In this document: in pieces, positions 22,788 through 25,962 of the stretch
Numbering within the stretch: the first letter of the stretch is position 1
How the letters are laid out: every line of letters begins with the position of its first letter
Position numbers and translations under genes: made by a program
The notes under the pieces: model-generated
Databases searched by the model: none
The model's input: the letters and a program-made list of their open reading frames with translations, nothing else
Told to the model about the DNA's origin: nothing
Assembly: GCA_036630325.1 (NCBI GenBank)
Contig: CP142733.1
Coordinates: 992,001-1,056,000, forward strand
DNA from: Vairimorpha necatrix
Taxonomy: Eukaryota
Length of the DNA stretch: 64,000 bases
Direction: 5' to 3'

Positions 22788-22835
22788 TGTATTTATTTAT
22801 CATAATGGGGGTAAAAATTATCAAAATATATAACA
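22788..22835 (-). repeat. 3' LTR (48 bp)
   Basis: TGTTATATATTTTGATAATTTTTACCCCCATTATGATAAATAAATACA, directly preceded by the polypurine tract on the minus strand. Confidence 0.95.
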
Positions 22836-22858
22836 TCCCCCCTCCAAGACGGTTAGTC

Positions 22859-25800
22859 TCACTTTATCCTTAACCCAAGCAGACTTTTTAGATCATAGTG
22901 CCTTTTCTTTACATATCTTCCATTTACTAACTTAACTATATAAGAATCATTGCCACATCTCTCTATAATTTTCCCACTCTCTAAAAACCTACCTTTCGAA
23001 TATTTATCCGCACCTTTCAAGTTTTCCTTCTTAGCTACTCTCACGTACTCACCTACTTTAAATTTTTCCCTTTTCCCCTTGTTAAACAGTTTTCCATATT
23101 TCCCTTGTGGGCTATTTTCAATCATTACATGTCCAGTTTTATCCTCTGTCGCTTCTATTGGTGTACATTTTAGTGCCGTGTGGTAACTCATATTATATTT
23201 TTCAATGCTTCCCATGACCTTCTCTGCAAATGTACCTTCTTTAGTCTTCAGAATGCTCTCTCGCAGCGTACCTATAACCCTCTCGACTCTGCCATTACTC
23301 CTGTGTGATTCGACACTTACTTTCCTATGTTTAATTTCTAGTCTGTTACACAACTCTCTAAACCCCTCATTGATAAATTCTCGCCCATTATCCGTTATAA
23401 TCTCTTCGGGCTTTTTTCCTTGTTCACACAACTTACTTAAAAATTCTGTCACATTCTTTCCAGTCTTGTTCTCCATTACCGTGCCCCATACTCTTCGAGT
23501 GTAATAATCTATCGCAACCAATACGTATTTACCTGCGTCTCTAAAATCAATGAGATCCAAAGCAACCTTTTCTAAATAACGTGTAGTATCTACAAACTCA
23601 CATCCACCGAGTCTTTTTCTATTATATATTTGACATTGTACACACTTTCGTATTGTCTCATTTATGTCTTTCTTTATTCCGGGCCAATAAAATCTTTCCC
23701 GCATCGCGTAATATACACTTGTCATACATCTATGTCCAACTTTTTCGTGGTATTCCTGCATCAAACTTTCCCTTGACTCTTCTGGTGGTATCTCGACTTT
23801 CCGTCCTGAATCAAATCTCCAATATTTTTTTCCTTCTGCGTCATCGACGTGCGCTTTCCATTTGCCCTCTATCTGCTTGGCGGTCCTTTCTCTGATTTTC
23901 TTTTTCTTTTCATCGTCTTCCATATGTATCCTGCTTAACGCGTCAGCCACCACCATTTCTTCTGGTTTCTTATATTCTATGGTGAAGTCAAATTCCTGGA
24001 TCTTTTCAATCCATCTATTTATTCTATTGTTATTAAAACACGGTTTATTTCTAATCTCAACCAAGGCTTTATGGTCCGTCTCGATTTTAAACTTCCTACC
24101 GCGCAACTCGTATTCAAATCTTTTTATCCCCCAAAATACCGCGTACATTTCTTTCTCCGATATAGTATATCTGGTCTCTGTAGGTGTTAACTTTTTTGAA
24201 CTCCATTGGATTGCTACCCATTCATCTTTATCGTTCTTCTGAAGTAACACGGCTCCTATCCCTACATTGCTCGCGTCCGTTCTCAATATAAATTCCTTCC
24301 TATAATCAGGCAATCTAAGTTTCCCCATCGCTCTCAAAACTTCTTTCAGCTCTAAAAACTCTCTATTCATTTCAACCGTCCATTCCCACTTCTTATCTTT
24401 ACCTCTCAAGCTATCTGTCAGATGAATAGTTAATTCCGCGTAATTCTTTATAAAGTTCCTAAACCATCCTGTCATTCCTAGGAATCTTCGTGTTTCACTT
24501 ACACTTGTCGGCTGCGGGAATTCCAACGCCTCGTTCTTCTTTATTTCATTCGCTTCAATATCTGTACCATTCAATGTGACTCCTAAGAGCTTAACTAACT
24601 GTTGGCTAAACTGTATCTTCTCAATATTCAATCTCATTTTATGTCTTTTTAATCTTTCCAATGCTTCTATAACTAGCTTGTCATGCCTTCTTTTAGTTCT
24701 AGCGTGTATAACGATGTCGTCCATATATACCTCCACTCCTTCTCCTTGTAAATCTTCAAATATTTGGTTCATTATTCGTTGTAATATCTGCGGGGAATTT
24801 TTATATCCCATTACCATACTGTTCCATTCATATACCTTTCTGTTAAATTCAAAGGCCGTATTGTGCTTATCCTCTTCTTCAATCTCTACGTGGTAAAAGC
24901 CTTCCTTCAGATCTATAACGGTAAACCATTTAGACCCCTGTGTGGCTCTAACGATGTCCCTAATATTTGACAACTCATACGGGTCTTTTTCAACTAAGTC
25001 ATTTAAACTCATTAGATTACTTACAAGCCTTACTCCTCCGTTAGGTTTTACTATAGCTCTAATTGGGTTCCTCCACTCGGATGTTGATCTTCTTATAATC
25101 TTTCTTTCTTCCAAACTTTTTATATATTTTTCAGTATTTTCCATCAACGCCTGTGGGATAGTTTGTCCTCTTTTAACTACTTTTTTCCCTGGTGGCGTCT
25201 CAATTTTACATTTCTCTATCTTACAGTGTACGATCTCTTCCTGCTGCAAGTCAAAAATTTCTCTAAACTTCGCTTTTATATCTTCAATGACAAGGCCCTC
25301 TTCCATTCTATCCTCTCTCATTCCTCTCCTTTTTGAATTTTGTTTACGTTTTGCTTCTCCGCATTTCCTATATTCTTGTGCGCTAAGTTCTGTGCTTGTA
25401 GATCCACTCTCTTCATGAACAATTAAATACTTGTTAAAATGTTTATTTTTATTATCTTCTTCTTTCCTCTTCCTTACGAAGCAATCTCTTGCCATGTGCC
25501 CAAATCTACCACAGTAAAAACAATCTCTACTTCTTACTCTCGTAGTTTCTTCCCTTATTTTTCCTAATGCTCCTCTATTTGCCAGCTCCTCTCGAACTGT
25601 TCCTCTAACCGACTCTGCAATTATTTCCATCATCTTACTTTTGTCTTCTTCTTCCTTCTTTTTTAATTCGTCCTTTCTAACCTCCTTTTCCATTTCTTCA
25701 ATAATTAAGGACCAACTATCTTCTTTTTTAATTCTTTCTACCATAAAGTTCTTTACTTCTTCCGAACCCATTTCATAAATTCTTGCCTTCCATAGAGACT

Positions 25801-25930
25801 CATCTACTCCATCCAACTCTAGCTTATAAACTATTCTTTTAATTTCTTGTAACATTATTCTGGCCTCTTGACCACAGCCATCACTTGTTGACTCTCGATT
25901 TGGTATCGCCCCCATGTATTTATTTATCAT
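22859..25930 (-). CDS. Gag-RT-RNaseH-integrase polyprotein (~1023 aa; likely start inside the 5' LTR)
   Basis: CFYCGRFGHMARDC knuckle; RT IDLKEGFYH and YMDD; RNase H TDAS, EKE, TDH, ADALSR; integrase HEKVGH..CVQC, LDLID, TDNGREF, GRVER. The RT-RH-IN order is Ty3/Gypsy. Confidence 0.93.
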   Translation of the reverse strand: MINKYMGAIPNRESTSDGCGQEARIMLQEIKRIVYKLELDGVDESLWKARIYEMGSEEVKNFMVERIKKEDSWSLIIEEMEKEVRKDELKKKEEEDKSKMMEIIAESVRGTVREELANRGALGKIREETTRVRSRDCFYCGRFGHMARDCFVRKRKEEDNKNKHFNKYLIVHEESGSTSTELSAQEYRKCGEAKRKQNSKRRGMREDRMEEGLVIEDIKAKFREIFDLQQEEIVHCKIEKCKIETPPGKKVVKRGQTIPQALMENTEKYIKSLEERKIIRRSTSEWRNPIRAIVKPNGGVRLVSNLMSLNDLVEKDPYELSNIRDIVRATQGSKWFTVIDLKEGFYHVEIEEEDKHNTAFEFNRKVYEWNSMVMGYKNSPQILQRIMNQIFEDLQGEGVEVYMDDIVIHARTKRRHDKLVIEALERLKRHKMRLNIEKIQFSQQLVKLLGVTLNGTDIEANEIKKNEALEFPQPTSVSETRRFLGMTGWFRNFIKNYAELTIHLTDSLRGKDKKWEWTVEMNREFLELKEVLRAMGKLRLPDYRKEFILRTDASNVGIGAVLLQKNDKDEWVAIQWSSKKLTPTETRYTISEKEMYAVFWGIKRFEYELRGRKFKIETDHKALVEIRNKPCFNNNRINRWIEKIQEFDFTIEYKKPEEMVVADALSRIHMEDDEKKKKIRERTAKQIEGKWKAHVDDAEGKKYWRFDSGRKVEIPPEESRESLMQEYHEKVGHRCMTSVYYAMRERFYWPGIKKDINETIRKCVQCQIYNRKRLGGCEFVDTTRYLEKVALDLIDFRDAGKYVLVAIDYYTRRVWGTVMENKTGKNVTEFLSKLCEQGKKPEEIITDNGREFINEGFRELCNRLEIKHRKVSVESHRSNGRVERVIGTLRESILKTKEGTFAEKVMGSIEKYNMSYHTALKCTPIEATEDKTGHVMIENSPQGKYGKLFNKGKREKFKVGEYVRVAKKENLKGADKYSKGRFLESGKIIERCGNDSYIVKLVNGRYVKKRHYDLKSLLGLRIK

Positions 25931-25962
25931 AATGGGGGTAAAAATTATCAAAATATATAACA
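25915..25962 (-). repeat. 5' LTR (48 bp) containing CCC promoter-like motif, in-frame ATG and AATAAA
   Basis: Identical to the 3' LTR and immediately followed by PBS TGGGGGCGATACCA. Confidence 0.95.

Follow-up and report, generated by a model that had tools for sequence, protein, structure and literature searches.

Here we describe a compact long terminal repeat (LTR) retrotransposon of the microsporidian Vairimorpha necatrix, which occupies positions 22788-25962, minus strand, of a 64,000-nucleotide stretch of contig CP142733.1 (assembly GCA_036630325.1, positions 992,001 to 1,056,000), hereafter the window, to which all coordinates refer. The element is of the Ty3/gypsy type, measures 3175 bp and is bounded by two LTRs of 48 nt. 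As far as its sequence tells, it belongs to a compact microsporidian type represented by the family retro L of Anncaliia algerae, a design that has already been catalogued (Parisot et al., 2014; PMC4202319) but has gone undiscussed. What makes it noteworthy is the apparent loss of protease and capsid, together with the use of the LTR as a 48-bp cassette that carries promoter and start codon. Taken as a whole, the data are probably best explained by a complete copy of a retro L-type gypsy element, which would follow an ordinary LTR cycle with a protease-free polyprotein.

The two LTR copies are identical at 48 of 48 positions (TGTATTTATTTATCATAATGGGGGTAAAAATTATCAAAATATATAACA on the plus strand), end in TG..CA and are flanked by a 5-bp target site duplication (TSD), TTGTG. 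A repeat finder reports 49 nt, since a T follows either copy, and an LTR of 49 nt with a TSD of 4 bp would formally be equally consistent; the canonical 48 + 5 has been retained. Inside the LTRs, a polypurine tract (PPT), GGAGGGGGGA, abuts the 3′ copy, and a TGG-initiated primer binding site (PBS) of 14 nt, TGGGGGCGATACCA, abuts the 5′ copy. Read on the minus strand, the LTR comprises in succession the TG end, an A/T-rich stretch, AATTTTT, ACCCCC, three bases, ATG, AATAAA and CA. The sequence outside the open reading frame (ORF) amounts to 32 nt before it and 71 nt after it, of which 48 are LTR, so that non-coding sequence beyond the LTRs comes to no more than 23 nt in the whole element. That this arrangement could be a chance repeat, an assembly artefact or a domesticated host gene is scarcely credible: apart from the presence of a single complete copy in the window nothing specific speaks for it, while no 48-nt repeat was matched in 100 dinucleotide-preserving shuffles, the TG..CA ends, TSD, PBS and PPT are all canonical, and the same layout recurs in another genus.

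A further cis element stands just upstream of the PPT. It is a 16-nt motif, TGAGACTAACCGTCTT, which is identical at 16 of 16 positions in the retro L consensus and nearly identical at 2697-2712 of a related contig, NZ_JBOFRG010000340.1 (L001). Here and below, retro L was compared by eye, using the consensus of Supplementary File S1 of PMC4202319, and machine alignment was applied to L001 only. The motif is non-coding in the window element and in retro L, and coding in L001; it may serve in packaging or as an extension of the PPT. A hairpin sought beside the PPT scored no better than shuffled sequences, both in the window (z = +0.73) and in L001 (z = -0.44).

A single Gag-Pol ORF runs from an ATG inside the LTR (25930, LTR position 33) to a TGA at 22859-22861, encodes 1023 amino acids and occupies 3072 of the 3175 nt (96.8%). 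A second in-frame ATG (25915-25913) spans the LTR/PBS junction, which thus encodes Met-Gly, and would give a product of 1018 amino acids. A call of 1034 amino acids was rejected as an ORF-calling artefact, its ATG arising across the boundary between flank and LTR. At 26% G+C, 1023 stop-free codons have a chance probability of about e^-92, and no other stop-free frame in the window exceeds 694 codons. The Pfam order is zf-CCHC, RVT_1 (residues 305-464), RT_RNaseH (553-658), Integrase_H2C2 (726-782) and rve (802-880), the succession of reverse transcriptase (RT), RNase H and integrase (IN) being that of the Ty3/gypsy (Metaviridae) type. In a family alignment of the window ORF with 16 homologues (17 sequences, 36-60% identity), the catalytic residues of RT (D335, D399, D400) and RNase H (D547, D614) are invariant, as are those of the HHCC (H723, H728, C758, C761) and DDE (D787, D842, E878) motifs of the integrase. 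Such coding capacity rules out the non-coding, non-autonomous TRIM/LARD class.

These results bear on an earlier note made from the letters of this DNA. It had reported identical 48-bp TG..CA LTRs, a TTGTG duplication, a PPT and a PBS, one uninterrupted ORF over about 97% of the element, and intact motifs of RT, RNase H and integrase; all of them could be located, the ORF coverage agrees, and the motifs prove to be invariant throughout the family alignment. Its description of the element as intact holds for the structure and the catalytic residues and fails for the protease, which the element does not encode. As for the recent insertion that it proposed, the uninterrupted frame of 1023 codons and the perfect TSD are consistent with youth and constitute the better evidence of it; the identical LTRs say little about age, as 0 differences over 48 sites would bound the divergence at roughly 6% only (rule of three).

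The absence of a recognisable protease is supported by several layers of evidence. No retropepsin was matched in the window ORF by Pfam at E <= 0.1, and the 25 Pfam families matched most often across 26 family members, scanned at E <= 1, include none. In precomputed domain assignments, PF13650, PF13975 or PF00077 are found in none of the 49 top matches of the polyprotein, but do occur in 16 of the 48 distant matches, which are mostly metazoan. As a positive control, a gypsy ORF of 1389 amino acids on another contig (L004) shows gag-asp_proteas at residues 317-399, upstream of its RT, and in the same scan the ORF of L001, a member of the family, yielded no protease domain. Furthermore, in the 17-sequence alignment the region from the zinc knuckle (residues 132-145) to the first invariant RT residues (C236, T240) is variable in length, unconserved and devoid of any D[ST]G.

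Structure prediction points in the same direction. AlphaFold2, run on residues 1-300 with a 26-sequence alignment, places helices at 14-35, 39-49, 52-61 and 68-129, then the knuckle, and predicts residues 159-207 to be disordered (pLDDT about 41), with no strand before residue 285; folding residues 1-147 alone leaves the helices unchanged. Searched against PDB with Foldseek, neither the 300-residue nor the 147-residue model gave a match at E <= 0.001. The larger model touches RT fingers only (Ty3 RT, 4ol8, at a non-significant E of 0.037), and the smaller one retrieves single capsid (CA) lobes, namely the Ty1 C-terminal domain (CA-CTD), Arc and Ty3 CA, at E values of 3.7-8.9, which is the level of noise. 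Look-alikes in a protein atlas, coat and Gag families among them, score 0.89-0.90 and are to be taken as leads only. A library search with residues 1-235 returned 122 matches at E <= 0.001, mostly to the zinc knuckle alone and hence uninformative on family size, those that cover the N-terminus being short fragments (57-348 amino acids). Altogether, the sequence comparisons and predicted models indicate that the whole family is without protease and keeps only a Gag stub; miniaturisation would thus have proceeded through the loss of the protease and of most of Gag, besides the shrinkage of the LTR.

How an element so reduced would move can be read in different ways. It may be non-autonomous, dependent on the protease and perhaps the capsid of a larger gypsy element, or else a recently dead, immobile copy. 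The missing protease and the Gag stub are what such dependence would look like, remnants of other gypsy families lie in the window at 3628-4219 and 4822-5759, and A. algerae harbours many larger families, of which retro M and retro O, as read by eye, encode a D-T-G. We nevertheless regard this as unlikely: the family has diverged to 36-60% identity and has kept long frames and catalytic residues while still being protease-free, and a variable, disordered linker with no conserved cleavage context would be an odd substrate for a foreign protease. Divergence to such an extent without a protease argues for long-term selection on a protease-free design and, the frames being intact, suggests a stable protease-free way of life.

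The boldest extension, which we put forward tentatively and with more doubt than conviction, is that the lineage might embody the smallest autonomous LTR retrotransposon design known, in which an unprocessed Gag-RT-RNase H-IN chain would remain on its own RNA, resembling a non-LTR ribonucleoprotein rather than a virus-like particle, protease and most of the capsid having been discarded. In such a design an LTR of 48 bp would suffice, being long enough for a microsporidian core promoter, the start codon, a poly(A) signal and the ends used by integrase, with an R region of about 20 nt or less.

In turn, the composition of the LTR becomes intelligible in the light of what is known of microsporidian genes. 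In the accessible parts of Peyretaillade et al. (2009; PMC2803860), microsporidian genes are described as carrying a CCC motif shortly before the ATG and an AAATTT-like signal, with 5′ untranslated regions (UTRs) shorter than 7 nt, the use of AAUAAA and frequent read-through; the upstream sequences of Nosema ceranae ribosomal-protein genes given there closely resemble the LTR of the element. The window itself behaves likewise. Among its host ORFs of at least 150 amino acids, 13 of 18 have a CCC no more than 12 nt from the ATG, usually preceded by a T-rich stretch, against a background of 6.9 CCC/GGG per kb (45 nt upstream were examined, and 4 of 22 ORFs were dropped as element-derived or nested). 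The published signal therefore holds strongly in this V. necatrix window, and could be used for the correction of start codons. On this comparison, the 48-bp LTR would be essentially a core promoter of host type (AAATTT-like box and CCC) with a start codon and an AATAAA added.

Under the explanation that we prefer, all cis functions would be packed into about 85 nt within an otherwise ordinary LTR-retrotransposon cycle. Transcription would start at about LTR position 26-32, because microsporidian 5′ UTRs are shorter than 7 nt, and the AATAAA in the 3′ LTR would direct polyadenylation to the LTR end or slightly beyond it. Both ends of the RNA would thereby carry an R/U5 of about 17-22 nt, serving the first strand transfer, a length that is short yet inside the retroviral range for R. 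The PBS, lying inside the first codons, would pair with the 3′ end of a tRNA, which fits its conservation at 14 of 14 positions in a relative whose adjacent coding sequence has diverged. The implied acceptor end (G1-G2-C3, with C72/C73) would suggest tRNA-Pro, on an identity rule that we presume to apply; no tRNA gene of any kind was found in the window or in the contigs L001-L004. The polyprotein would act unprocessed, or be cut by a host or helper protease, and integrase would create the 5-bp duplication.

Priming without any tRNA, in the manner of Tf1 and sushi, would proceed differently: the 5′ end of the transcript, CCCCCAU.., would fold onto AUGGGGG, be cut by RNase H and then prime minus-strand synthesis. 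The 45-nt 5′ region can indeed form a hairpin of 7 + 3 bp (-14.1 kcal/mol, z = -3.0, with 3 of 200 shuffles as good), and transcription is predicted to begin at the CCCCC run or close to it. The hairpin of the divergent relative in the window is, however, weak (z = -0.96, equalled by 34 of 200 shuffles), the corresponding pairing in retro L extends over about 5 bp only, and part of the pairing follows simply from CCC..ATG and the CA/TGG junction being there for other reasons. Moreover, self-priming leaves the conservation of the 14-base PBS unexplained, 7 of its bases falling outside the stem. We hold it to be decidedly improbable, and retain tRNA priming as part of the ordinary cycle.

The element does not stand alone. 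A homology search with the polyprotein gave 97 matches, the best of the named relatives coming from V. necatrix, with 94% identity across 61% of the query, and from Nosema granulosis and Enteropsectra breve. Within the window, positions 1-758 hold the 5′ part of a divergent element truncated by the window edge, with a Gag 39% identical. Its alignment with the complete element begins exactly at the first LTR base and diverges right after the PBS; its LTR has 49 nt (84% identical) and its PBS is identical at 14 of 14 positions. In L001, a contig of 3024 bp in a metagenome-assembled genome (MAG) named Clostridium, with a polyprotein 50% identical, the 3′ end reads GGAGGAGGGGA followed by a 38-nt TG..CA unit with CCCC and ATG, inside which the ORF stops.

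Contig sizes tell a similar story. Among the 27 near-full-length matches (976-1090 amino acids), tabulated by hand to the exclusion of shorter or partial matches and of P0025 (1188 amino acids), contigs cluster at 3.0-3.2 kb, and 18 of the 27 are below 3300 bp, the ORF leaving only 25-261 nt of them uncovered. The proteins carry further traces of the design. The pattern M-x(3-6)-M-[A/G] opens 9 of 16 homologues, and another 4 begin directly with M-[A/G]; both forms are what an ATG within the LTR and a ..CA/TGG(C/G) junction would encode, and 3 homologues do not fit. C-terminal ends of the form ..LE(E)G.. (P0014, P0019, L001) or ..GGD.. (P0028) fit a translated PPT. Thus an LTR of about 48 bp is supported as a family trait: the earlier note had inferred as much from the 49-bp LTR of the relative at the window edge, which proves to be real, and the 38-nt unit of L001 and the homologues on contigs of about 3.1 kb extend it.

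Two side observations concern the same set of homologues. Between the two start methionines, I-N or N-K is frequent (MINKY, MENKY, MNINVH, MEINVH, MSINLY), and these residues may reflect a poly(A) signal of AATAAA/ATTAAT type read as protein. In addition, L001 and two further microsporidian-type retrotransposon contigs, JBOFCV010000135.1 (L002) and JBOFCV010000057.1 (L003), which are degraded copies without recognisable LTR junctions, are placed in MAGs that bear the bacterial names Clostridium sp. and Turicibacter sp.; this is probably eukaryotic contamination of species-representative genomes.

Several points weigh against our interpretation. The full copy is single within the window, where no further or solo LTR was found within 3 mismatches or by blastn at word size 9. 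The LTRs of the relative and of L001 are each present once, so that their boundaries rest on alignment and motifs, and the contigs of about 3.1 kb could be truncated or represent transcripts. The position of AATAAA varies among the LTRs of the members, which leaves the poly(A) model loose. Weak matches to Peptidase_A17, reported without location, occur in 3 of 26 members (best E 0.047). To our knowledge, every characterised LTR retrotransposon needs its own protease; an autonomous protease-less element would be unusual, which argues for helper dependence. Finally, where transcription starts, how far R extends, what serves as primer, and whether the element is autonomous and mobile today are proposals drawn from the sequence.

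From a broader perspective, the family sets a practical lower bound for an LTR retrotransposon, at about 3.1 kb in total with LTRs below 50 bp, and, if it is autonomous, protease and two-lobed capsid would be dispensable for LTR retrotransposition. There are also practical consequences. Gene predictors call such elements host genes, under the names "reverse transcriptase" or "endonuclease" in the V. necatrix annotation, and both the repeat content and the gene counts of microsporidia are affected by the elements that are missed. In turn, copies found in bacterial MAG bins constitute a marker of eukaryotic contamination.

Regarding the genomic context, the element is inserted between the fifth and sixth ORFs of a same-strand paralogous array, with housekeeping genes downstream; the features of the element and of its relative are collected in Table 1. 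The six paralogous ORFs, all on the plus strand (1495-2418, 7342-8262, 10103-11035, 13323-14264, 20943-21887 and 27435-28475), encode proteins of 306-346 amino acids with 31-49% mutual identity, hydrophobic N-termini and no Pfam match. Retroelement debris is present at 2840-3079, 3628-4219 (plus strand) and 4822-5759 (minus strand), and consists of an RT fragment related to the family of the element (37% to N. granulosis pol) and of integrase fragments of a different, larger gypsy family. Farther downstream, a 678-amino-acid ORF at 30205-32241 (plus strand) has a class I chitinase domain (Glyco_hydro_19) at residues 535-628 and is adjoined, on the opposite strand, by a MOZ/SAS acetyltransferase; a replication factor C (RFC) small subunit at 33618-34535 has its nearest named relatives in Vairimorpha bombi (74%) and N. 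granulosis (67%). An Rfam scan of the window returned a 5S rRNA gene alone, far from the element, at 47897-48015 (plus strand; RF00001, 76.7 bits). The G+C content of the window is 26.2%, and the accessible part of the V. necatrix genome paper gives 28.3% for the genome and describes chromosome-scale contigs.

Table 1. Coordinates of the features of the compact element and of its divergent relative in the window.
Feature	Position	Strand	Evidence
Divergent relative, 5′ part: LTR 710-758, PBS 696-709, Gag ORF from 740/725 downwards	1..758	-	96.7% identical to P0005
TSD copy 1 (TTGTG, plus strand)	22783..22787	.	Identical to 25963-25967
3′ LTR, 48 nt, TG..CA; AATAAA at 22792-22797 (minus-strand reading)	22788..22835	-	48/48 to the other LTR
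PPT GGAGGGGGGA	22836..22845	-	Equivalent tract in L001 and A. algerae retro L
16-nt motif TGAGACTAACCGTCTT, contains the TGA stop, just upstream of the PPT	22846..22861	-	Conserved in retro L and L001
Gag-Pol ORF, 1023 aa / 1018 aa	22859..25930	-	ORF translation
Integrase core rve, DDE	23324..23560	-	Pfam; invariant D787, D842, E878
Integrase HHCC zinc-binding domain	23618..23788	-	Pfam; invariant H723, H728, C758, C761
RNase H domain	23990..24307	-	Pfam RT_RNaseH, E 6e-32
Reverse transcriptase, YMDD	24572..25051	-	Pfam RVT_1, E 4e-32; alignment
Predicted disordered, unconserved linker, aa 159-207, at the usual protease site	25295..25441	-	AlphaFold2, alignment, Pfam negative
Single CCHC zinc knuckle, nucleocapsid remnant	25481..25522	-	C132, C135, H140, C145 invariant in 26 sequences
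Gag stub: predicted three-helix bundle (aa 13-61) and long helix (aa 68-128)	25532..25879	-	AlphaFold2 pLDDT 87.8 (aa 1-147 alone); no significant PDB match
PBS TGGGGGCGATACCA, within codons 1-5 of the shorter ORF reading	25901..25914	-	14/14 in the relative at 696-709
5′ LTR, 48 nt; promoter-like AATTTTTACCCCC 25934-25946; start ATG 25928-25930	25915..25962	-	Motif as in the accessible parts of PMC2803860
TSD copy 2 (TTGTG)	25963..25967	.	Sequence

The earlier note had made its claim depend on the architecture not being catalogued already. It is, in Table S1 of Parisot et al. (2014; PMC4202319), where retro L of A. algerae is listed as complete, with an ORF at 32-3049. Retro S, CK and BU are also given short LTRs there (45, 73 and 90 bp, respectively), so that LTRs below 100 bp occur in 4 of the 50 families listed as complete for A. 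algerae; in the remaining complete families the LTR measures 105-272 bp and the element 3.6-4.3 kb, AU (2584 bp) being the exception in length. The main text of that paper describes microsporidian gypsy elements as having one polyprotein rather than separate gag and pol; it contains neither "protease" nor "retro L", and "short" only in an unrelated context. In the accessible part of the V. necatrix genome paper, the words "LTR", "gypsy" and "retrotransposon" do not occur. A search of the literature on short-LTR or protease-less LTR elements, with subscription journals, Repbase and GyDB outside its scope, yielded no discussion of the design and nothing microsporidian beyond Parisot et al. Two other statements of the note are borne out: gypsy elements were already known in the Vairimorpha/Nosema clade, and LTR finders run with default settings would miss the element, the default minimum LTR length of LTRharvest being 100 (PMC2253517, Table 1).

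Retro L and the element agree in their dimensions, in the layout of their ends and in the plan of the protein. They measure 3127 bp with LTRs of 50 bp in A. algerae and 3175 bp with LTRs of 48 bp in the window, and in both the ORF begins inside the LTR (base 32 and base 33, respectively), downstream of CCC. The retro L LTR starts with TGTTATATAT, has ACCC directly before the ATG and ends in ..ACA/TGG, and the start, the order of CCC then ATG and the junction are shared with the element. At the 3′ end, the same 16-nt motif is followed in both by a GGAG..GGA PPT and the TGTTATATAT start of the LTR. Retro L likewise encodes a single polyprotein; this has one CCHC, lacks a D[ST]G from the knuckle to the RT, and around the start of the RT contains stretches closely similar to those of the element. 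Differences are also evident, beyond the fact that it comes from another genus: the PBS diverges after TGG, which implies that another tRNA serves as primer, the central parts of the two LTRs cannot be aligned, and AATAAA lies upstream of CCC in retro L but downstream of the ATG in the element. Within A. algerae, retro M and retro O, with longer LTRs, encode the D-T-G that the element lacks; retro S (3806 bp, with an ORF of 1212 amino acids) is a separate, longer lineage. The Ty3/gypsy element Nbr of Nosema bombycis (Xu et al., 2006, as cited in the accessible part of PMC2474625) has, like the element, one polyprotein running from Gag to RT-RNase H-IN; it is described there with five domains including a protease, in contrast to the protease-free family considered here.

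Outside microsporidia, Ty3 of Saccharomyces, the type member of Metaviridae, and the element share the order RT-RNase H-IN, a 5-bp TSD, TG..CA LTRs and the placement of PBS and PPT. Ty3 measures about 5.4 kb with LTRs of 340 bp, encodes a protease and a capsid of two lobes, and relies on a frameshift between gag and pol; the element has instead 48-bp LTRs, one ORF, no protease and a Gag stub of about 130 amino acids. Short LTRs are found as well in mag of Bombyx mori (about 77 bp), a full-size element with protease, and in the plant TRIMs, which are non-coding. With Tf1 and sushi the element shares the single Gag-Pol ORF and an RNA whose 5′ end might fold back onto the PBS, Tf1 itself having a protease and LTRs of 358 bp.

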